Shown here: positions 1,718 through 61,362 of the stretch, in pieces | How the letters are laid out: every line of letters begins with the position of its first letter | Position numbering within the stretch: the first letter of the stretch is position 1 | Assembly: GCA_951406725.2 (NCBI GenBank) | Contig: OX597840.1 | Coordinates: forward strand, 21,328,001-21,392,000 | Source of the DNA: Octopus vulgaris | Taxonomy: Eukaryota | Direction of reading: 5' to 3' | Length of the DNA: 64,000 nt | Position numbers and translations under genes: made by a program | Notes under the pieces: generated by a model | Databases searched by the model: none | What the model was told of the DNA's origin: nothing | Seen by the model: only the letters and a program-made list of their open reading frames with translations

Positions 1718-1721
<4 letters not shown>

Positions 1722-1908
1722 TCATCATTTAACGTCCGCTTTCCATGCTAGCATGGGTTGGACGGTTCGACTGGGGTCTGGGAAGCCAGGAGGCTGCACC
1801 AGGCTCCAGTCTGATCTGACAGTGTTTCTACAGCTGGATGCCCTTCCTAACGCCAACCACTCCGAGAGTGTAGTGCGTGCTTTTTACGTGCCACCTGCAC
1901 AGGTGCCA
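1718..1908 (-). mobile_element. Family B: 3' end of the RTE-clade LINE (5'-truncated copy or tail-sharing SINE)
   Basis: Matches 38890-39072 in reverse; (GAT)n tail; adjoins (TA)n. Confidence 0.85.
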
Positions 1909-2439
1909 GACGATGATATACACACAGTGAAAACCATGTCTAATTATAGGGAAATATTACTTTGTTCAGAAATATGTGAGGGCAGGTGACAGGAAGAGAA
2001 CCCAGCTGACGAAAATCTGCCTTGGTAAATTCTGTCTGACCCATACAAGTGTGGAAAAGGGGTCATTAAATGATGATTATGATGACCACAAGGTCCAGTT
2101 GCAGTGTGGGGACCTCTGTGTGTCTCAAGGTGCAAGCATGTAGTAGGGCCTCCATGCTGGACAGGTCAAAAGATAAAGGCTAGACTTAATATGGACCACC
2201 TCTTTCCCAGAGATAAAAATGGGATTGTAGAGGGTTTAGCACCCCTACCTAGAAAAAAGGGAACTTAAGAAGCTTTGATGACAATTCAAAGCCAAGACCT
2301 AGGAGAGGAAGGCTTTCAAAGACAGGAGAGAAAAGTCGATGGCCTGTCCTTCATAGGGAGCAAAGTGCTTAATTAAGTATAATTTATCCGAAACCTTATT
2401 ATTTAATGTGTCCTTCCTTATTATTAAGATGGTACAATG

Positions 2440-5420: not shown

Positions 5421-5814
5421 TATATATATATATAAACCGATACTATGCAGTCTTTAAAAGGACATTACCGAAGTCAGGATCAATTGAGTATAGTAAATTT
5501 GACTAATTGGAATCCATCTGCATCCACTGAGATTATCCAACATTGTTAACCAATAAGAGAGAGCAGGGTACCCGCTAGATTTATATGTGCCTCTTAACCA
5601 TTTTGGGAAATATATATCAGAAGTCTATGACTGCGATGAAGACAGCATTAATTCTTTAAGATCGTTCAATTTTTGTCAGCCAATCAACGGACCAATTGAG
5701 CAAAGTGCTCAATGAACAAACCTATAATGACCATCAGAAACAGCTGTGAGTCAAATTCAGTACAATAAAGAAATGTGTAATGACTATTACACCTTGTCTG
5801 TCTGTCTGTATCAA

Positions 5815-6130
5815 CATCATCGTTTAACATCCTCTTTCCATGCAGGCACGGGTTGGACAGTTTGACTGAGGACTGGCCAGGCAGGAGCAAGCACCATGCT
5901 TCTGTGTGTTTTGGCATGGTTTTTATGGTTGGATGCCCTTCTGAACACCAACCTTCCCGTAGACTGGGCTGAGTGCTTTTTACGTGGCACAAGCACAGGC
6001 GGGGTTAGTTTTGGCATGGTCTTTATAGCTGGATGCCTTTCCAAATGCCAACCACTTCATAGTGTGGACTGGGTGCTTTTGAAGTGGCACCTGCACTGAC
6101 AGGGTCACCAAGTAACTTGCAAGACAAGGA
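5815..6130 (-). mobile_element. Family B variant with two GGAAGGGCATCC modules
   Basis: Reverse homologue of 17845-18192. Confidence 0.75.
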
Positions 6131-17844: not shown

Positions 17845-18192
17845 CAGATCACCTCTTCCAATACTGCCTCTTGTCTCAAAGATTCCTTGTCTTGTAAAGG
17901 TTCTTGGTGACCCTGCCATTGCAGGTGCCACTTAAAAAGCACCCAGTCCACACTATGAAGTGGTTGGCATTTTGAAGGGCATCCAGCTGTAAAAACCATG
18001 CCAAAACTGACCATCCCCGTGCTGGTGCCATGCAAAAAGCACTCAGCCCATTCTGCAAAGTGGTTGGTGTTGGGAAGGGCATCCAGACATTAAAACCCTG
18101 CCAAAACAGACACAGAAGCATGGTGCTTGCTCCTGTCAAACCACCCAACCCATCCCAGCATGGAAGGAGGACGTTAAACGATGATGATGATG
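17845..18192 (+). mobile_element. Family B variant
   Basis: Two GGAAGGGCATCC modules and a GGACGTTAAACGATGATG tail. Confidence 0.8.
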
Positions 18193-18391
18193 ATACATAT
18201 AACACAATTGCCAAGGACTGCCCAAAGTGATGACATGTCATCATTGAGGGAACAGACCTGATGAAAATAACAGGCATCAAGTGGGGCAGACACAACTCAC
18301 ACTACCTTGCCCCCTCCCCAACTCTCTCCTGTGATAAATGCTCTGCCCCTCCCCCCCGGCTCTTCAATACTACCACCCTTGGTCTTCTATA

Positions 18392-18805
18392 CCTATTTCT
18401 TTACTACCCACAAGGGGCTAAAAACAGAGGGGACAAACAGACAAATGGATTAAGTCGATTCCATCGACCCCGGTGCGTAACTGGTACTTAATTTATCGAC
18501 CCCGAAAGGAAGAAAGGCAAAGTTGACCTCGGTGGAATTTGAACTCAGAACGTAACAACAGATGAAATACCTATTTCTTTACTATCCACAAGGGGCAAAA
18601 AACAAAAGAGACAAACAAGGACAAACAGATTATTAAGTCGATTATATTGACCCCGGTGCGTAACTGGTACTTATTTAATCGACCCCGAAAGGATGAAAGG
18701 CAAAGTTGACCTCGGCGGAATTTGAACTCAGAACGTAACGGCAGACGAAACACCACTAAGCATATCGCCCGGCATGCTAACGTTTCTGCCAGCTCCCTCC
18801 GCCTT
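18392..18805 (-). mobile_element. SINE family C with tandemly duplicated 3' half
   Basis: 18392-18570 repeats 18571-18750; head ends near 18805. Confidence 0.88.
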
Positions 18806-19469: not shown

Positions 19470-19785
19470 CCAGTGCCAGTGGCACGTAAGAGAACCATCC
19501 GAACGTGGCCGTTGCCAGCGCCGCCCCGACTGGCCTCCATGCCGGTGGCACGTAAAAAGCACCATCCGATCGTGACAGTTGCCAGCCTCGTCTGGCACCT
19601 GTGCAGGTGGCACATAAAAAGCACCCACTACACTCTCGGAGTGGTTGGCGTTAGGAAGGGCATCCAGCTGTAGAAATATTGCCAGATCAGAATGGGCCTG
19701 GTGCAGCCTCCTGGCTTCCCAGACCCCAGTTGAACCATCCAACCCATGCTAGCATGGAAAACGGACGTTAAACGATGATGATGAT
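19470..19785 (+). mobile_element. Family B with three internal repeat units, inserted in (TA)n
   Basis: GTGCCGGTGGCACGTAAAAAGCACC units plus tail; (TA)n on both sides. Confidence 0.88.
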
Positions 19786-20052: not shown

Positions 20053-20682
20053 CTTTTACTTGTTTCAATCATGCTGGAGCACTGCCTTAAAGGGTTTTAG
20101 TCGAAGGAATCGACCCCAGGACTTATTGGTCTCTTCTGTCAAAAAGCTAAGTTACAGGGACATAAACACCAGCATCAGTTGTCAAGCGATGGTGGGAGAG
20201 ACAAACACAGAGACACACACATGACAGGCTTCTTTCAGTTTCCATCAACCAAATCCACTCGCAAGGCTTTGGTTGGACCGAGGCTAGAACAGAAGACACT
20301 TGCCCAAGGTGCCATGCAGTGGGACTGAACCTGGAACTATGTGGTTGGTAAACAAGCTTCTAACCACGCAGCCATGCCTGTGCATACACACATATCTGTA
20401 AGTGGCCGTTGCCAGCGCCGCCCCGTCTGGCCTCCATGTCGGTGGCACGTAAAAAGCACCATCCGATCGTAGCCGTTTGCCAGCCTCATCTGGCACCTGT
20501 GCAGGTGGCACATAAAAAGCACCCACTACACTCTCGGAGTGGTTGGCATTAGGAAGGACATCCAGCTGTAGAAACACTGCCAGATCAGACTGGGCCTGGC
20601 ACAGCCTTCTGGCTTCCCAGACCCCAGTTGAACCGTCCAGCCCATGCTAGCATGGAAAACGGACGTTAAACGATGATGTTGA

Positions 20683-20685
<3 letters not shown>
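20053..20685. mobile_element. SINE A (-, 20053-20380) back-to-back with family B (+, 20400-20685)
   Basis: Homology to other copies in the window. Confidence 0.85.
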
Positions 20686-20724
<39 letters not shown>

Positions 20725-21544: not shown

Positions 21545-21547
21545 ATA

Positions 21548-21803
21548 TCATCATCGTTTAACGTCCGTTCTCCATGCTGGCATGGGTTGGACGGTTCGAC
21601 CGGGGATCTGGGAAGCCAGAAGGCTGCACCAGGTTCCGGTCTTATCTGGCAAAGTTTCTACAGCTGGATGCCCTTCCTAATGCCAACCACTCCGAGAGTG
21701 TAGTGGGTGCTTTTTATGTGCCACTGGCACTGGTGCCAGGCGAGGCTGGCATCGGCCACGGTCGGATTGGTGCATTTTACGTGCCACCTGCACGGAAGCC
21801 AGT
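21548..21803 (-). mobile_element. Family B
   Basis: Reverse homology to 19470-19785. Confidence 0.88.
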
Positions 21804-23730: not shown

Positions 23731-24134
23731 TTAAGTGTATTTCCTAGTTCTCTTATGTTCTCAGTGTTCAGATAGCACCAAGGCCAACCTTGCCTTCCGT
23801 TCTTTCAAGAGTGATAAGACAGTATTGCTGTGACAACAGCAGAAAGATTGGCTGTTTTACCCTCTTTGCCAATATTTGTCTTTTATTTCGTATATTTTCA
23901 TTTGTTTTGCTCATTTTTACATTTTGGTGTTTTGCTGAGATTTTTCTTGAGAACACATTCTTCGTGGTAATGGCGATTTGACATCTATGTTCAGCATATT
24001 AGGTGTCCACTATAGTGGTCGTTCCTCTTAATTTTGTATGTAACACAATTTTTTTAATCTTCACATTCTTTAAATATGCTAAGCCACTGGTTTTAATTGA
24101 TTAATATCAATTTCTACCCTTATTATTTATCAAA

Positions 24135-25190
24135 GTCGAAATCAAACTCGGTGTCTGCCATCCGTTGCTAGTGGAGCGCTAAGAGTACCATACGAGTGAG
24201 ATCGTGCCAGAGCAGCAAGCTGGCCTTCGTGCCGGTGGCACGTTAAACACACCATTCAAGCAGGATTGTTACTTGCGTCGCTTTACTGGCACTTGTGCTG
24301 GTGGCACGTGAAACATTCGAGCGAGGTCGTCGCCAGTGCCGCTGGACTGGCTCCTGTGCAGGTGGCACATAAAAAGCACCATTTGGGTGTGGCCATTGTC
24401 ACTTCCACCAAACTGGCCCTCGTGCCGGTGGCATGTAAAAACACCCACTACACTCGGAGTGGTTGGTGTTAGGAAGGGCATCCAGCTGTAGAAACTCGGC
24501 CAAATCAGATTGGAGTCTGGTTCGCCAGACCTCAGTCAAATCATCCAACCCATGCTAGCATGGAAAGCAGACATTAAATGATGATGATGATGATTATGAT
24601 TATTTAATATACATATACATGTGCACAGACATACACACATGCATTCAGTATGTTATACAACCATGCAACACTCACAAGTTTCCTGGCAATCCACACGGAT
24701 TCAATTATCAACAGTTGTACTGCCATTCCACAGGTCATCAACCGTTGCAAGACAGAACAGTTGAACAGTGGCACAGAGATTACTTACAACCATCAACTGC
24801 AAGGTTTCATCGCTGTGGCTTGCCAGGGAGATCAGAAATCTGGAGTGAGTGTTGCTTCTTTGAACATTGGATTCAGCATCATCCACTCTTGACCATACTC
24901 AGATTTACTTCTGTTGCTACATCATCATCATCGTTTAACGTCCGTTCTCCATGCTAGCATGGGTTGGATGGTGCAACTGGGGTCTGGGAAGCCAGAAGGC
25001 TGCACCAGGCCCAGTCTGATCTGGCAATGTTTCTACGGCTGGATGCCCTTCCTAACGCCAACCACTCCATGAGTGTAGTGGGTGCTTTTTACGTGCCACT
25101 GGGACGGAGGCCAGCAAATGGCCACGATCGGATGGTGCTTTTTACATGCCACCGGCACGGAGGCCAGCCGAGGCTGGCTACGGCCACGAC
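24135..25190. mobile_element. Tail-to-tail family B pair (24135-24595 +, 24920-25190 -)
   Basis: The left copy extends into sequence homologous to 38515-38600 of the RTE 3' UTR. Confidence 0.85.
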
Positions 25191-26212: not shown

Positions 26213-26599
26213 ATGTTTGTGGGCGTGCGGGTGTCCACATGTAGAATTTCTCTGGAATGAAGAAAAATGCCTTGCTGAGAAATTTGATAAGTGTTTGCGA
26301 CAGCAAGAGCAGCCGGCCATAAAAATTCTGCCTCAAGAATTTCCCCATCTAAGCCACGCTAGCATGAGTAACAAACTCTAGATGAGACAGAGTCGGATGA
26401 TAGAAATGGACAGTCATATATACATAGTCAAACATACATATACAAATATACACATATAGATATGTACATACATATAGACATAGACATATGTATGTACATG
26501 TGTGTGTGTGTATGTACTAATAAGTGGAAGTATTGAAGGCCAATCTCAAAACGCTGAGTCTCACAATGGATGACAGAAGACGAAGAAATGTGATGCCTT

Positions 26600-27550
26600 G
26601 CTGTACTCAAGAAGACCTGCCCACCACAACAGAATTGAGATCCTAAAACCAAGGTGCCATGTGCAAAACATTGGTGTGGATACTGGTCCCCTATAAAAAG
26701 CACCGGTGATGGTGTCACATAAAAAGCACCCAGGACACTCTGTAAAGGGGTTGGCATTAGGAAGGGAATCCAGCTGTAGAAACTTAGCCAAAACAGACAA
26801 TGGCACTTGGTGCAGTCCTTGGCCTCACCAGTTCCTGTCAAGCCGTCCAACCCATGCCAGCATGGAAAACAGACGTTAAATGTTGATGATGTTGACAATA
26901 CATACATGTGTGTGTGTGTGTGCGCGTATATATGTATATAGACACATACACACATAATCCATCCATTCTCCCTCAAGTCCCAACCTGCACAAAATTACAT
27001 CCCTGTTAAATTCCTTCCCCACAAAATATCCTACGAATACCTCCCTCCCTCTACCAGTGCCCCCTTATTAGATCCCACTCCCCTTCTCTAGTTCTCACTC
27101 TCCTTTTGAAATCTTGTGAATGCATCCACCCCTAACCTAACCCTTTTCCAAGCCCCAGTCTACTTCAGAATAGACACCTCCCTGTAACTTCCATGTACAG
27201 TTCCTACCTAAGCCCACCTCATCACATCAGTATTCTTCTCTCGCCATTTGAGGAAGCCATGTTTCTCTCCTAACACAGGACATTTCCTCTGTCCCTCAAT
27301 ACTACTGCCCCCTCAGTTGAGGGGTTTTGTCTTGCAAGTTACTCGGTGACCTCACCAGTGCTGGTGCCACATAAAAGGTATCCAGAACATTCTGAGAAAT
27401 GGTTGGCGTTAGGAAGGGCATCCAGCTGTAGAAACCCTACCAAAGTGGACAGCAAATGCTGATGCAGTCTTCTGACTCACCAATTCCTGTCAAACAGTCC
27501 GAGACATGCCAGTACGGAAAACAGACACTAAATGACGACGACGATGATGC
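26600..27550 (+). mobile_element. Two family B variant copies (about 26600-26895 and 27320-27550)
   Basis: GGTTGGCRTTAGGAAGGG..TCCAGCTGTAGAAA module and GAT tails. Confidence 0.7.
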
Positions 27551-27862
27551 TGTATGTATGTATGTATATATATTTTATATATACAAATATGTGTGTTCAT
27601 GCATATGAATTCACACGTTCCCAAATAAGTAGATATAGAGATATATATACATACATATACAACACTTTGATCTTAACAAAAGACATATCTGCATATATAT
27701 TATGTAGATATGTATATATTTTATGATTTGGCTTAGGGACAGAGATAGTAATGAGTACTCCTTACAATTTTCATGCTTTAGAAAGTAACCCATTAGGTGG
27801 ATATAGAGTGAAACATCAATTAACGCAGGACAAAGGAAGAGGACTTATGTAACGAGTGGGAC

Positions 27863-37804: not shown

Positions 37805-38050
37805 CATCGTCGTCGTCGTTTTAACGTCCATTTTTCCATGCTTGCATGGGTCAGATGGAATTTGTTCAGGCAGATTTCTGTTGCAAGTCCTCCGCATATT
37901 TCCAAGCAAGGTGATATTTCCTCATTTCTGGACACGTTTTCCCTGAGAATTTGAAACAAAGGACTCTACGTTGCTTGACAGTGACACTCATTTCCAACCG
38001 TCACGTAATGTCAAGGCAAGGAAAGAGTAACACATACACACACACACACA
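37805..38050 (-). mobile_element. SINE family E with an RTE-like (family B) tail
   Basis: Tail CCATGCAAGCATGGAAAAATGGACGTTAAAACGACG; body shared with 20990-21205, 1920-2085 and 58805-58950. Confidence 0.7.
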
Positions 38051-38079
38051 CATGCAGTAATATTATTGTAATAATAATG

Positions 38080-39072
38080 TTAGTATGATTCGATGGATGT
38101 GTAATGTCAGTGTTCATACTCGACAGAGTGTAAGTACCTTGAGAGAAAAGTTGGACCTAAGAAGCATCAGTTGTGGTGTGCAAGAGAGACGACTGTGCTG
38201 GTATGGTCATGTGGCGAGAATGGATGAGGATAGTTGTGTGAGAAAGTACCACACCCTAGCGGTTGAGGGAACCTGTGGAAGAGGTAGTCCCAGGAAGACC
38301 TGGGATGAAGTGGTGAAGCATGACCTTTGAACATTAGGCCTTACCGAGGCAATGACTAGTGACCGAGACTTTTGGAAATATGCTGTGTTTGAGAAGTTAT
38401 GGCAAGCCAAATGAGACCATAAACTGTGGCCTATGCCAGGAGCATAACCACCCCGCTTATGCGTACCTTTTCCTTCTTTGGTCACTAAACCTTGCTTGCA
38501 AAGACCTGTTGAGGCAAGTGAAATCAAAATCAAATTCAATGACTGGCATCCATGCTAGCAGGGTGCAAAGAGCACCATATGAGTGTGATCGTTGACAGAG
38601 TGGCTAATCGGCTTCCGTGCCAGTGGCACATAAAAGGGCACCATTCGAGTGTGATCGTTACCAGTGTCGCCTTACTGGCACTTGTGCCCATGCTAGTAGG
38701 GTGCCAAGAGCACCATCCGAGCTTGATTGTTGCCAGAGCAGCCAACTGGCTTCCATGCCGGTGGCACGTAAAAGGGCACCATTCGAGCGTGATCGTTACC
38801 AACGTCGCCTTACTGGCACCTGTGCCGGTGGCATGTGTAAAAAGATTTGAGCGAGGTCATTGCCAGTACCGCCTGACTGACCTCTGTGCCGGTGGCACGT
38901 AAAAAGCACCCACTACAGTCTTAGAGTGGTTGGCTTTAGGAAGGGCATCCAGCTGTAGAATCTCTGCCAGATCAAGATTGGAGCCTGGTGCAGCCATCTG
39001 GTTCACCAGCCCTCAGTCAAAATCGTGCAGCATGGAAAGCGGACATTAAACGATGATGATGATGATGATGAA
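38080..39072 (+). mobile_element. 5'-truncated RTE-clade LINE: ORF C-terminus (38085-38414, one internal TGA) plus structured 3' UTR and (GAT)n tail
   Basis: MIRWMCNVS..LREKLDLRSISCGVQERRLCWYGHVARM..VEGTCGRGSPRKTWDEVVKHDL*TLGLTEAMTSDRDFWK is the canonical RTE RLRWYGHVxRM / GRPRKTW / DRxxW terminus. Confidence 0.92.
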
Positions 39073-39792
39073 TGTTATATTGCCTGAAGAAATGAATCCA
39101 TGAAGATGATCAACCCGATGCCCACGGATACTAAGGACTCTTCAGTAATCGTCCCAGGAATGCAGACTCTGATCATAAGAGACAGGTGATTTGAGGAAAC
39201 GTGCATAGCAATGCATTGAAATATTTCTAAATTCCAACTACAACAACTGCAGCCACTACAGAACCCTGTTCTCACTTATAATGCTTCTAAATTCTCTACA
39301 AGAAATAGAATACAGTAAAACCATGAGAGTGGAAGCATCTGGAATATGGGGAATCAGGGGAGGAAGAGAGAAGGAGAGGCAAGAGTGGGTTGAAGGAGGA
39401 GGGGGAGGGAATATTGCAGAAGTTAAAACATCACAAAGTTATTTTATTCTCTAAACCAGGGGCAGGGGTAGCCTTTTTTTAGTACCAAGGGGGTAGTTGT
39501 AAGTGCATAAAAACAGATGGGACATTTCTGGTCTGAGGAAAATAAAGCATCGTTGATTGTACAAATTTATTGTTATGCAACTTATATGGAATTATGGTTT
39601 GATTTACTCCCAAGACTTAAACCATTTCTTCATCATGTTTTTTAGAGGTTCTGTCAGCAGGCGAGGGTGGTACTTCACCGCCCCCTGTTCTATACAGGTC
39701 TATTTCTCTATCCCAGCCAGTGTGTAATGTCGGGCTGCATTCATTTTGCTGAATAATTCTGTCATCATTACTTCAGATAGAGAAAAATCTAT

Positions 39793-40702: not shown

Positions 40703-41610
40703 TAACCATTTTGGTACCAAACTGCCTCAAACTGCCACCCCTGCTTCTCTAATAAACACTTCCTGTTTTAAAGTCGTCTAATTAAAACCGAATTTCTCGT
40801 TAATTTATCTATGTTCCAGACTTCAGCTGAAGAACGACAAAGTTATTTTACTAAATTCTTTCATTATTTTCAAAATTAATTGAAACGAAAGAACGGTAAC
40901 AAAGGAATTAACGAAGAATAGAACTGCTTTGTCTCTCAACCTACTAGAAATAGCAGCCAAATCTCCTTTCGTTAAACCTTTAGCCTTCAGATTACTTGGT
41001 CAAATGGAATGCTTATTTATTCACATTGTTTTAGGTTTATCCGGCATTCTCTCACAGCTTCAAGACTTTGATGATGATGATGATGATCATCATCATCGTT
41101 TAACGTCCGTTTTCCATGCTAGCATGGGTTGGACAGTTTGACTGGGGTCTGGGAAGCCAGGAGGCTGTACCAGGCTCCAGTCTGATCTGGCAGTGTTTCT
41201 ACAGGTGGATGCCCTTCCTAATGCCAACCACTCCGAGAGTGTAGTGGGTGCTTTTTATGTGCCAGGGGAGGCTGGCACCGGCCATGATGCGTTTGTTTAT
41301 TTTTAGAATGAAGTGTGTGAGATATCTGATGTGGTCAGTTTGAACAGAAAACAAGTCCAGAATATTTGGACAGACATGGCTGGTTCTTCAACCCTTTAGC
41401 TTTCAGATTCTTCTGCCAAATATAATTCTTATTCATTGTTTTAAATTAATCATGCACTATCTTGTAGCTTTAAGATTCCAATGACCTGTTAGTTTACTTT
41501 TAGAATAACATTGTAGGGAAAGTGTGAGAGGTCTAATATGGCCACTTTGGACATAAAACCAGAAGAATATTTGCACTGGATATGGTTGGTTGGTTGGTTT
41601 TAAGCCTCTA
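40703..41610 (+). mobile_element. Cluster of degenerate piggyBac MITEs; one is split by a family B insertion (41085-41285, -)
   Basis: Homology to 23531-23730 and 42627-42845. Confidence 0.65.
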
Positions 41611-47689: not shown

Positions 47690-47905
47690 AGTGATGATGA
47701 TGACAATGATGATGGTGGTGGTGGTGACAACAATGATGATAATGATGATGGTGATTATAAAATGACAGCAGTAAAGACAGTGATAACAATGTTGATGATG
47801 ACGATGATGATGATAATGATGATGACGATGATGATGATAATGATGATGATGATGACAATGATGATGACGATGATGATGATAATGATGATGACGATGATGA
47901 TGCTA

Positions 47906-47943
<38 letters not shown>

Positions 47944-48178
47944 AATGATGATGATGATGATGATGATGATAATGATGATGGTGGTGGTGGTGACAACAAT
48001 GATGATAATGATGATGATGATGATGATGATAATGATGATGACGATGATGATGATAATGATGATGATGATGACAATGATGATGACGATGATGATGATAATG
48101 ATGATGACGATGATGATGATAATGATGATGATGATGACAATGATGATGACGATGATGATGATAATGATGATGATGATT

Positions 48179-48217
<39 letters not shown>

Positions 48218-48256
48218 ATGATGATGATGATGATGATGATGATAATGATGATGATG
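47690..48256. repeat. (GAT)n microsatellite with higher-order variant periodicity
   Basis: GAT interrupted regularly by AAT and GAC; GGTGGTGGTGGTGACAACAATGATGATAATG occurs twice. Confidence 0.95.
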
Positions 48257-49214
48257 AGGAACTTTAGAATGATTCTTTGAGGTACTTTTAGGAAACTGTT
48301 TGAAACCCCAATGTTGTGCAGACACTTCACCAAGAGATATTCAACACTGCCATTGACCCTGCTAGAATCAGCAGCTAAATACCCCCTTCCTCAAATCCTT
48401 CCCCCAATGCCTTAAAATGGCTTAAGGAGAAAGGATGGTCCCACTGGACAATGTGGTCCTTGATATACAAAAGAGGAAAGAAGACAAAGACAGTTGGATC
48501 ATATTTCTGGAATAGTTTTGGTTGGAGATCTGCTCAGTCAGGACTGACCTGTGGTTATATAAAAGCAATATTTTGCTATGGGATGACCCTGGAAGGACTT
48601 CTGGGCATCTTGATCAGGGGTTGGCCCCTTGCTGTGGTTGGGTGTAAGCGAGGGGACTGCACAGTTTTGTACTTTGAAGAGAGGGAAGGCGGGAGGGATG
48701 GAGGGAGGTAAATAACACCATGATGATGATGATGATGATGATGATGATATGTATTGCACTTGTTATTGATATTAAAGACCAAGAAAAAAAGCAAAGACAA
48801 AAGTAATAAGGGAACAACAACAACAACAACAGGAAAAAAACTGCAATAACAACAAGAACAATAGAACCCATTAAAACACACACACACACACGCATACACA
48901 TGCACGCACGCACGCACCCGCACACGCGCCAGAAAAAGGGGTCATTTGAAAAAACTGATGAAACAGACTATGTAATAAGTTGTACTTTCTATTTACTGCA
49001 GATAGAGGGGAGGGGGGAAAGAGGGGACAGGACGGGACGGGACGGTGGGGGAGAGACGGTTGGGCTGGGGGGAGGGGGTAGATGCATGTGTGTGCGTGTG
49101 TGGGGGGGGGTATGGAGTGGGCGGGTGTCCAGCTACATAGTGAAACACTTATTTGTGAAATGTTCAATAGCTATCGATATTTTGGATCCAACCCAAGCAA
49201 CACAAAAGGAAGAA

Positions 49215-50040: not shown

Positions 50041-50480
50041 CCATACTATACCATTAACAGCCATACTATATTACTCACTGCCATACTACACCCCTGACAG
50101 CCATACTCTACCACTGAAAGCCATACTATAACACTGACAGCCATACTATAACACTGACAGCCATACTATATCACTGACAGCCATACTATAACACTGACAG
50201 ACATACTATAACACTGACAGCCATACTATAACACTGACAGCCATACTATAACACTGACAGCCATACTATACTCCTGACAGCCATACTCTACCACTGAAAG
50301 CCATACTATAACACTGACAGCCATACTATACCCCTGACAGCCATACTCTACCACTGACAGCCATACTATATCACTGACAGCCATACTATATCACTGACAT
50401 CCATACCACATTACTGACAGCCATACTACATAATTCACTGCCATACTATACCACTAACAGCTGTACTATACGACCAACAG
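50041..50480. repeat. 20-bp minisatellite, about 22 units
   Basis: Unit CCATACTATAACACTGACAG in exact phase. Confidence 0.95.
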
Positions 50481-60405: not shown

Positions 60406-60837
60406 AATAATGGTGGGTGCATACATGGACACACATATTGTAGTTGTATAATTAGGTTATGTCAAGTAAATGGATTGGATTGGTTTGGACTGCCCATGTT
60501 CAGACCACTGCAGGACCAAGGCCTCAGCATGTCCTCTCCACCAACCATAGTCTGATGTGGACCCTGTGGATCTGAGTTTGAGATCCTACTGGTTTCATGA
60601 GTTTACTCTGTCTCTTTGACTTGACATATGTTGGATTGAATTGCTTAGGTTCAGTCCACTGCAAGACTAAGAACTCAGCATCTTCTCTCTATTAACCAGA
60701 GTCCGATGTGCAAGGGAATATTTCACCCTGGTCAGAAGATGTTTCTGCGGAATATTGAGAATGAAGGACACGGCTTGGGCATCAGTGACAACCATTTACA
60801 ATTATTATGTAATATCAACAGTAGCCAGTACCGCATC

Positions 60838-61362
60838 AACTGGCCTCCATGCTGGTGGCACATAACAAACACCATCCGATCATGGCCGTGCCAGCCTCGC
60901 CTGGCCTCTGTGCTGGTGGCACATAAAAAACACCATCCGAGTGTGGCCGTTCGCCAGCCTCGTCTGGCACCTGTGTCAGTGGCACATAAAAAGCACCCAC
61001 TACACTCTCGGAGTGGTTGGCGTTAGGAAGAGCATCCAGCTGTAGAAACACTGACAGATCTGACTGGGCCTGATGAAGCCTCCGGGCTTCCCAGACCCCA
61101 GTTGAACCGTCCAACCCATGCTAGCATGGAAAGTGGACGTTAAACGATGATGATGATGATGATGATGATCAACACAAGGAGACATGATCACACACACACA
61201 CGACAGGCTTCTTTCAGTTTCCGTCTACCAAATCCACTCACAGGACTTTGGTCGGCCTGAGGCTATAGTAGAAGACACTTGCCCAAGGTGCCACGCAGTG
61301 GGGCTGAACTGAGAACCATGTGGTTGGAAAGCAAACTTATTACCATACAGCATTGCCCACAC
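60838..61362. mobile_element. Family B (+, 60838-61170) and a SINE A head (-, 61200-61362)
   Basis: Three pseudoknot-type units plus tail. Confidence 0.88.

Follow-up and report, generated by a model that had tools for sequence, protein, structure and literature searches.

An RTE-type LINE end with an array of units predicted to be structured

The window, the whole 64-kb stretch of DNA analysed here, is repeat-rich animal DNA with a GC content of 39%. Between 38,085 and 39,071 it carries the end of a LINE: an ORF remnant, a spacer, an array of six units, a conserved GGAAGGGCATCC domain and a 3′ tail (Table 1). An in-frame stop (38328-38330) precedes the terminal TGA of the remnant (38412-38414). 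The remnant aligns with the C-terminus of P0024, a protein of 1031 aa with Exo_endo_phos, RVT_1 and PHD matches; it is 79% identical to P0001 over 111 aa and 76% identical to a UniRef protein labelled Octopus bimaculoides. A Pfam search with the 94-aa remnant matched no family. The window copy being truncated, the single ORF with AP endonuclease and reverse transcriptase is seen in relatives only (P0024), and the RTE label is drawn from this architecture together with a C-terminal motif that we take to be RTE-type. A simple-sequence 3′ end of RTE type is present as (TGA)n at 39052-39071, as it is in other copies. From the stop codon to this microsatellite the 38.4-39.1 kb copy measures about 640 nt and is not of the very short form that is usual, as a typical and not a defining trait, for RTE 3′ UTRs (PMC2887409).

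The family is very abundant, with 54,886-86,040 contigs placed per large run, so that thousands of such structures are to be expected in introns and UTRs. Contigs from four runs (three coded organisms) covered 30 of 30 bins from the ORF to the tail, and divergent contigs covered the spacer in all four; among the contigs listed none spans the whole stretch, and the variants (40 of 180 rows) are unphased. Three scans of viral contigs gave 0, 1 (chance-like) and 0 matches.

A preliminary description had placed about six units 3′ of an RTE-type stop codon, and six are found at 38550-38910. The repeat is real: with up to two mismatches allowed, the window holds 16 matches to a 25-nt core pattern, and 100 shuffles gave none. 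The same description had the typical unit folding as stem 1, loop 1, stem 2 and loop 3 of a pseudoknot. That architecture can be drawn for three of the six units (38616-38642, 38754-38780 and 38885-38910), the first two carrying decay mismatches, one of them an A-C in stem 1 of 38754-38780. It does not fit two hairpin variants (38550-38576 and 38688-38714), which form a plain hairpin from GGTGC and GCACC, nor one unit without CACC, a type that occurs in the 24.3-kb copy too. The linker and hairpin loop given for the typical unit both vary strongly among unit types. Among the three loop-1 bases proposed, C, A or T, the A is a genuine variant (5 of 21 main-type units) and the T is ascribed to CpG decay, the loop-1 CpG reading CG in 8 of the 21, CA in 5, TG in 3 and AG in 5.

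Positions 38550-38826 are one 138-bp duplication with halves 85% alike, the second half beginning in unit 3. Duplication periods among the modules are 63-70, 100 and 138 bp. Contig joints lie in the register of the units, with skips of 70, 145, 154 and 206 bases and returns of 53, 66 and 136 bases, which indicates that unit number varies among copies.

Table 1. Positions in the window of the LINE remnant, the array and the related copies (fold assignments are predictions)
Feature	Position	Strand	Remark
LINE C-terminal ORF remnant, 5′-truncated and decayed, single-ORF endonuclease/reverse-transcriptase type	38085..38414	+	protein matches P0024, P0001
Non-repeated spacer, stop codon to array, no microsatellite tail	38415..38549	+	3′ end common to the 24.1-kb copy
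Unit 1, hairpin variant without pseudoknot	38550..38576	+	GGTGC/GCACC closes a 5-nt loop (38562-38576)
Unit 2, decayed hairpin and predicted pseudoknot	38594..38642	+	hairpin 38594-38612; pseudoknot 38616-38642
Unit 3, hairpin and second hairpin-variant copy	38660..38714	+	hairpin 38660-38679; variant hairpin 38700-38714 (within 38688-38714)
Unit 4, hairpin and predicted pseudoknot	38732..38780	+	hairpin 38732-38750; pseudoknot 38754-38780
Unit 5, hairpin and stem 1 only	38798..38845	+	hairpin 38798-38817; core 38821-38835; stem-2 CACC strand absent
Unit 6, hairpin and intact predicted pseudoknot	38862..38910	+	hairpin 38862-38881; pseudoknot 38885-38910 (5-1-4-0-5-7-4)
Short hairpin and conserved GGAAGGGCATCC domain	38911..38968	+	domain just before ORF start in related elements
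3′ tail and (TGA)n end	39020..39071	+	homologous to relatives' last ORF codons (partly deleted here)
Truncated copy, 1 unit, domain, tail	1718..1913	-	
Second-subfamily copy, pseudoknot and domain duplicated as 100-bp unit	5810..6100	-	span 5908-6090
Second-subfamily copy, same 100-bp pseudoknot-plus-domain duplication	17912..18194	+	
Truncated copy, 3 units, domain, tail	19473..19785	+	
Truncated copy, 2 units, domain, tail	20400..20686	+	
Truncated copy, 2 units, domain, tail	21547..21802	-	
Copy with spacer end and 5 units	24133..24599	+	order as in the 38.5-kb array
Truncated copy, 2 units, domain, tail	24920..25188	-	
Second-subfamily copy, own ORF-end remnant, pseudoknot with A-U junction pair, domain, tail	26525..26895	+	start approximate
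Second-subfamily copy, one pseudoknot, domain, tail	27351..27557	+	
Truncated copy, single unit minus pseudoknot 5′ half	41080..41280	-	
Truncated copy, 3 units, domain, tail	60821..61165	+	

Further arrays had been reported at 19470, 20400, 21700 (minus strand), 24170, 25080 (minus strand) and 60838, and every one of them is present; the range of one to four units given for them is exceeded by the 24.2-kb copy, which has five. An ORF-end remnant precedes the 26.5-kb copy according to protein alignment (score 52 against a best of 41 in 100 shuffles); DNA alignment gave no confirmation (score 20, null maximum 31). For five other copies, a search of the upstream sequence detected no ORF remnant. 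Elsewhere in the window, two head-to-tail 183-bp copies, 87% alike and presumably of a common octopus SINE, lie at 18389-18754, an (ATG)n tract of 156 copies at 47789-48257 and a 20-bp minisatellite of 21.5 copies at 50041-50471. The UniRef octopus helicase model P0002 carries a piece of the LINE ORF end at residues ~65-120, probably an artefact of the gene model.

Conservation and pairing of the units

Twenty-one main-type cores were aligned; three hairpin variants, the half-deleted 41.3-kb unit, an old 55.2-kb copy and the second subfamily were excluded. The search anchor fixed part of stem 1 and of loop 3, and the rows represent only about five or six unit types. Counted without truncated row parts and without the tails of two CACC-less units, departures from the column majority occur in 13 of 424 non-CpG stem cells, as against 54 of 120 in the hairpin loops, 24 of 62 in the spacer and 77 of 1351 in the terminal region. 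The CACC strand, which lies outside the anchor, departs in 1 of 75 cells; the A-rich loop 3, partly fixed by the anchor, departs in 15 of 139. At the level of the aligned sequences the stems are conserved and the loops diverged. A loop and spacer divergence of ~40-45% beside ~3% in non-CpG stems, among paralogous units, argues for lasting constraint on several of them.

This pattern bears on an unlikely alternative, in which the fold and a 5′-UTR origin (see below) are real, the reverse transcriptase slips at structures, and the extra units do nothing. The free variation of unit number and order, the joints in unit register, the three duplication periods and the loss of stem 2 from one unit type in two copies all agree with such passive multiplication. 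Yet the difference between stem and loop divergence requires constraint, even if five or six unit types furnish few independent observations.

Covariation had been proposed as a test of the pseudoknot, and among the 21 main-type units, at the present depth, the test fails. The pseudoknot model pairs 90.2% of 256 cells, compared to 90.0% in shuffles; its covariation score of 0.101 was equalled or beaten by 97 of 500 shuffles, and a plain hairpin model scores as well. The sole double change (C-G to U-A) coincides with CpG sites; the three CpG sites are each about half decayed, in both directions, as is expected of dead copies. For the 27-nt core of eight units, the pseudoknot energy, which takes the better register with a generic penalty and excludes stacking and triples, was -3.9 to -6.6 kcal/mol, compared to -4.6 to -8.6 kcal/mol for the best nested fold. 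Competing nested structures arise in longer windows, RNAalifold predicted stem 1 alone for the main-type units, and the z-scores for folding of the whole array were weak (-2.29 and -0.78).

The lack of covariation, the undecided energies and the RNAalifold prediction would suit units made of two plain hairpins, with CACC conserved for its sequence or paired otherwise, as would the finding that in terminal units with loop-1 A the GGTG can pair with an upstream CACC. At 19594-19610, 20492-20508 and 1891-1907 (minus strand), an upstream CACCT can pair with AGGTG in competition with stem 2, and a two-state fold is possible for these units. The loop-1 A speaks for the pseudoknot in another respect, since with it the plain hairpin loses its sixth pair and the pseudoknot keeps all of its own; the C of the second subfamily has the same effect. 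With the evidence from other families, given next, we regard the plain-hairpin reading as unlikely.

In the second subfamily (5.8, 17.9, 26.7 and 27.4 kb) the base at the stem junction is a C or a T. Outside the window, scans with a downstream anchor covered 121 of ~340 metagenome loci and 20 genome loci, 10 of the latter being chance-like bacterial matches. One locus, L031, has the geometry of the octopus unit with a different stem 1; another, L126, is flanked by a target-site-like repeat and keeps the 3′ portion of the fold, apparently through truncation within the pseudoknot. A cross-family alignment has 12 rows: four main-type units (out of 21), six units from the second subfamily, and the loci L031 and L126. 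In it 87-89% of cells pair, and the covariation score (0.237 or 0.256 in the two registers) was reached by none of 500 shuffles, for a set that is small, hand-picked and composed of related rows, which can beat shuffles without structure. The signal consists of few independent changes, those of L031 foremost. Across families 97.9% of stem-2 cells are paired, and the fifth pair of this stem shows a double change from C-G to U-A; both results argue against plain hairpins. In 12 of 12 rows the junction base finds a partner at the top of stem 1 (C-G, A-U), at the end of loop 3 (C-G, U-A, U-G) or at both, so that nine pairs are kept as the stem boundary slides. The resulting geometries, 5-1-4-0-5-7-4 or 4-2-5-0-4-6-5, give two interleaved stems with loops that could span the grooves; the short loop lengths may suit the sense strand only.

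A narrow pseudoknot descriptor applied upstream of the anchor matched 2 of 23 representative loci, where 0.07 were expected. A wider descriptor, set after the narrow result, matched 6 of 32 loci (near-duplicates included) against 0.6 expected, none of 16 in another outside family, and none of 12 in a control group that by oversight included L143, the contig of L126. In a large SINE-like family it matched 3 of 80, with 1.6 expected. Four loci are convincing (L031, L051, L056 and L103), with 9-13 pairs and unrelated stem sequences, and the recurrence of one geometry from unrelated stems in L051, L056 and L103 again counts against plain hairpins; the matches in L009 and L072 may be chance. A pattern search of five genomes behind loci returned the L126 site and no other. 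In L002, L004, L059 and 13 similar loci, a longer bulged pseudoknot followed by a GTCG/CGAC-type hairpin can be seen by eye 60-105 bases before the anchor; the descriptor missed this family of 16 loci. Taken together, stem conservation, the second subfamily, the outside elements and the pseudoknots with unrelated stems favour the pseudoknot reading, and within-family covariation and energies do not. We judge the feature to be probably pseudoknotted.

The GGAAGGGCATCC domain and its 5′-UTR position in relatives

The GGAAGGGCATCC domain that follows the array can itself be drawn as a predicted pseudoknot, with GTTGG/CCAGC and GGCA/TGCC as stems and an A-rich loop. A free stem-2 partner, [TC]GC[CT], is present in 11 of 23 representatives, where by our estimate ~4 are expected. 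In elements outside the window the domain occupies the 5′ UTR. Among eight outside loci with an RTE N-terminal match, seven have the ORF start 16-29 nt 3′ of the domain anchor, the start being an ATG that opens a frame of 93-227 codons; among the loci, L103 was included on visual inspection and L139 is broken. Outside elements carry, in the slot 5′ of the domain, a twister ribozyme (L132, L139, L140) or the compact pseudoknots described above. The twister-P1 matches, all below the Rfam gathering score, lie directly 5′ of the domain at L132:726-805, L139:616-696 and L140:416-475.

The tail of the octopus element translates as RPTHASMENGR*, of which 8 of 11 residues are like the last residues of P0016 (1 of the 39 C-termini listed). 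At L122, a short-tail form of the RTE 3′ end, a similar tail directly follows the ORF end. The 5′-UTR position of the domain and the ORF-end likeness of the tail together indicate that ~600 nt of 5′-UTR-type sequence came between the ORF end and the tail. The domain thus matches RTE 5′ UTR and the tail RTE ORF-end sequence, the two parts of the bipartite '5′ UTR + 3′ tail' RTE derivatives described as common (Kojima 2018, PMC5786205); RTE 5′-UTR domains are also reported in SINE bodies, as in hagfish SINEs (PMC7245038). It is likely, judging from these matches, that the octopus array arose when the element captured a 5′-UTR module between its ORF end and its former 3′ tail and the module was then amplified. 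The ORF-end link of the 26.5-kb copy and the contigs that cross the stop codon argue against a one-off chimera. The interpretation in the preliminary description is supported in part; that module and domain are 5′-UTR parts in relatives had escaped it.

Two candidates were set aside. L122, considered as an instance of the octopus arrangement, proved to have an ordinary short tail, with a separate element lying behind it. RTE-2_OV is a different element, with a 3′ UTR described as mostly microsatellite (PMC9115989).

Non-coding elements keep the domain (L053, L081, L126, L138 and ~80 SINE-like loci), which points to a role in mobilising RNA, beyond ORF translation, and the constancy of its distance from the start codon speaks for ribosome contact. 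On why the domain is conserved across phyla, the available text of PMC5786205 speculates only. The SINE-like RTE derivative (L007, L014, L016 and the ~80 metagenome loci) has a sharp 5′ end, placed ~36 bases 5′ of the anchor. This spacing is shared by 53 of 61 distinct loci, conservation falls a few bases upstream, and the element's initial bases could pair with the anchor. The end may mark a fixed site of processing or a fixed start site. Several animal-type RTE elements or SINEs lie in bacterial assembly contigs (L122, L123, L126, L127, L128, L132 and L137-L140), likely as contamination.

The twister in the slot before the domain bears on self-cleavage, which the preliminary description had raised and for which we found no support. 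A reading of the units as self-cleaving ribozymes, possibly of twister descent, would agree with this shared slot and with the order of GTGCCGGT and a distant GTAAA in both twister and octopus unit. Rfam searches of 38000-39200 gave no relevant family and no ribozyme match at E up to 10, and a twister core at three mismatches is absent from the 64-kb window; as controls, L132, L139 and L140 match the twister model RF03160, below its gathering score. Descriptors run without a positive control found an HDV-like fold in none of 10 copies and the hammerhead word CUGANGA in only 1 of 10. Copies run unbroken from ORF through array to tail, which is not compatible with active cleavage, and we consider a ribozyme very improbable indeed. 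With respect to -1 frameshifting, a slippery heptamer occurs in 1 of 10 copies and not in the 38.4-39.1 kb copy, where the array follows the stop.

The same slot is where twister leaves an uncapped end (PMC8501958), and in related elements the module lies there, on the 5′ side of the ORF, as a block to an exonuclease might. By halting it, the units would protect the RNA 3′ of them, and short stable 3′ RNAs would be copied as non-autonomous elements. Short 3′ copies are indeed abundant, and in 14 of 16 inspected copies the vicinity of the module is free of any ORF remnant, 7 of them being covered by the upstream test. The preliminary description had suggested a check for clustering of truncation points at unit boundaries. 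Among the seven array-truncated copies none begins inside a pseudoknot and one begins at its 5′ edge, which would suit a block, but they share no common position: the 5′ ends, too few in number, lie variously in the linker, in the hairpin or at the edge of the pseudoknot. Ordinary 5′ truncation would look alike, and L126 is apparently truncated inside the pseudoknot. Known XRN1-resistant RNAs have a ring-like junction, and this 26-nt pseudoknot is without one. We hold such an exonuclease block to be improbable.

A possible function and comparison with known systems

The reading that we tentatively prefer, at somewhat less than even confidence, sees in the array an RTE-type LINE's 3′ UTR built of tandem hairpins and predicted compact H-type pseudoknots, a captured 5′-UTR module that was multiplied as a protein-recruiting RNA handle. 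By template switching, which would be the simplest route, a non-coding '5′ UTR + 3′ tail' derivative may have taken the place of an autonomous element's short 3′ end. The module would then have been duplicated repeatedly, at the 63-70, 100 and 138-bp periods, with selection on active master copies preserving the pairing. The predicted fold would bind the endonuclease/reverse transcriptase protein, directly or at its ribosome, and so favour the element's own RNA as template. Several results weigh against a handle. The SINE-like family, starting ~36 nt before the anchor, is large and has pseudoknot matches near expectation, so the module is not needed for mobilisation everywhere; three of the six units at the locus are not pseudoknots; and the main-type units show neither covariation nor an energetic preference for the pseudoknot over nested folds.

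A bolder and decidedly unlikely version would have RTE LINEs of distant animals sharing a string of pseudoknots 16-29 nt before the start codon, for IRES-like docking of the ribosome, with SINEs stealing the module and the octopus LINE having moved and multiplied it as a multivalent trap. If it were true, the conserved RTE 5′-UTR domain could be explained in both structure and mechanism, and loading of reverse transcriptase could be directed by a portable RNA tag. More generally, the folds offered here for the domain and the upstream module are concrete and testable in relation to own-RNA choice in the RTE clade and to reuse of the domain in SINEs; should the units be passengers only, they make a useful annotation note.

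A literature search of text sources, without Repbase Reports and most subscription papers, turned up no earlier account of the array, and the preliminary description knew of none. The available text of two octopus repeat papers (PMC9115989, PMC13282606) does not describe this UTR. Neither GGGCATCC nor 'octopus' appears in the supplement text of PMC5786205, a text-only search in which a line break could hide a match. What is new is probably a structured variant of a LINE UTR, in which a coding LINE has a 5′-UTR cassette as its 3′ UTR, in amplified form.

The closest relatives in build are the bipartite RTE derivatives (PMC5786205, PMC7245038), which likewise join an RTE 5′-UTR piece to a 3′ tail and exchange modules by template switching; the HaSE1/RTE-2_DPl piece in the supplement of PMC5786205 has, by eye, a similar order of motifs. 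The octopus cassette differs in that it stands behind the ORF of a coding LINE and has its pseudoknot module tandemly amplified, and the available text of PMC5786205 proposes no RNA structure. Twister ribozymes are known at RTE 5′ ends, as in Perere-3 (PMC8501958; see also PMC6765202), in the same slot relative to the GGAAGGGCATCC domain and ORF start; the octopus unit has neither a twister core nor an Rfam match. In size and shape the unit resembles the luteovirus/polerovirus frameshift pseudoknots, such as that of PLRV (PMC5416846), which has ~26 nt, two short stems and an A-rich loop able to form minor-groove triples with stem 1. The 2-nt loop 1 of PLRV is CA (PMC5416846), and that of the second subfamily here CA or CT. 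In contrast, the octopus units are non-coding, tandem and without the unpaired bridge residue, and 9 of 10 copies have no slippery heptamer or downstream frame. The upstream pseudoknot domain of TMV (PMC4683447) also consists of consecutive small pseudoknots after a stop, 5′ of a terminal structured domain, and is reported to act in replication, translation and eEF1A binding. TMV is viral, whereas the octopus pseudoknots alternate with hairpins and end in a retrotransposon tail, and no sequence likeness is expected. LINE proteins recognise 3′-UTR structures, among them the 3′-UTR pseudoknot of R2 and the stem-loops of stringent-type LINEs. These handles for the reverse transcriptase near the 3′ end offer the closest functional model; they are single terminal elements, whereas the octopus LINE carries an array within a UTR of ~640 nt.
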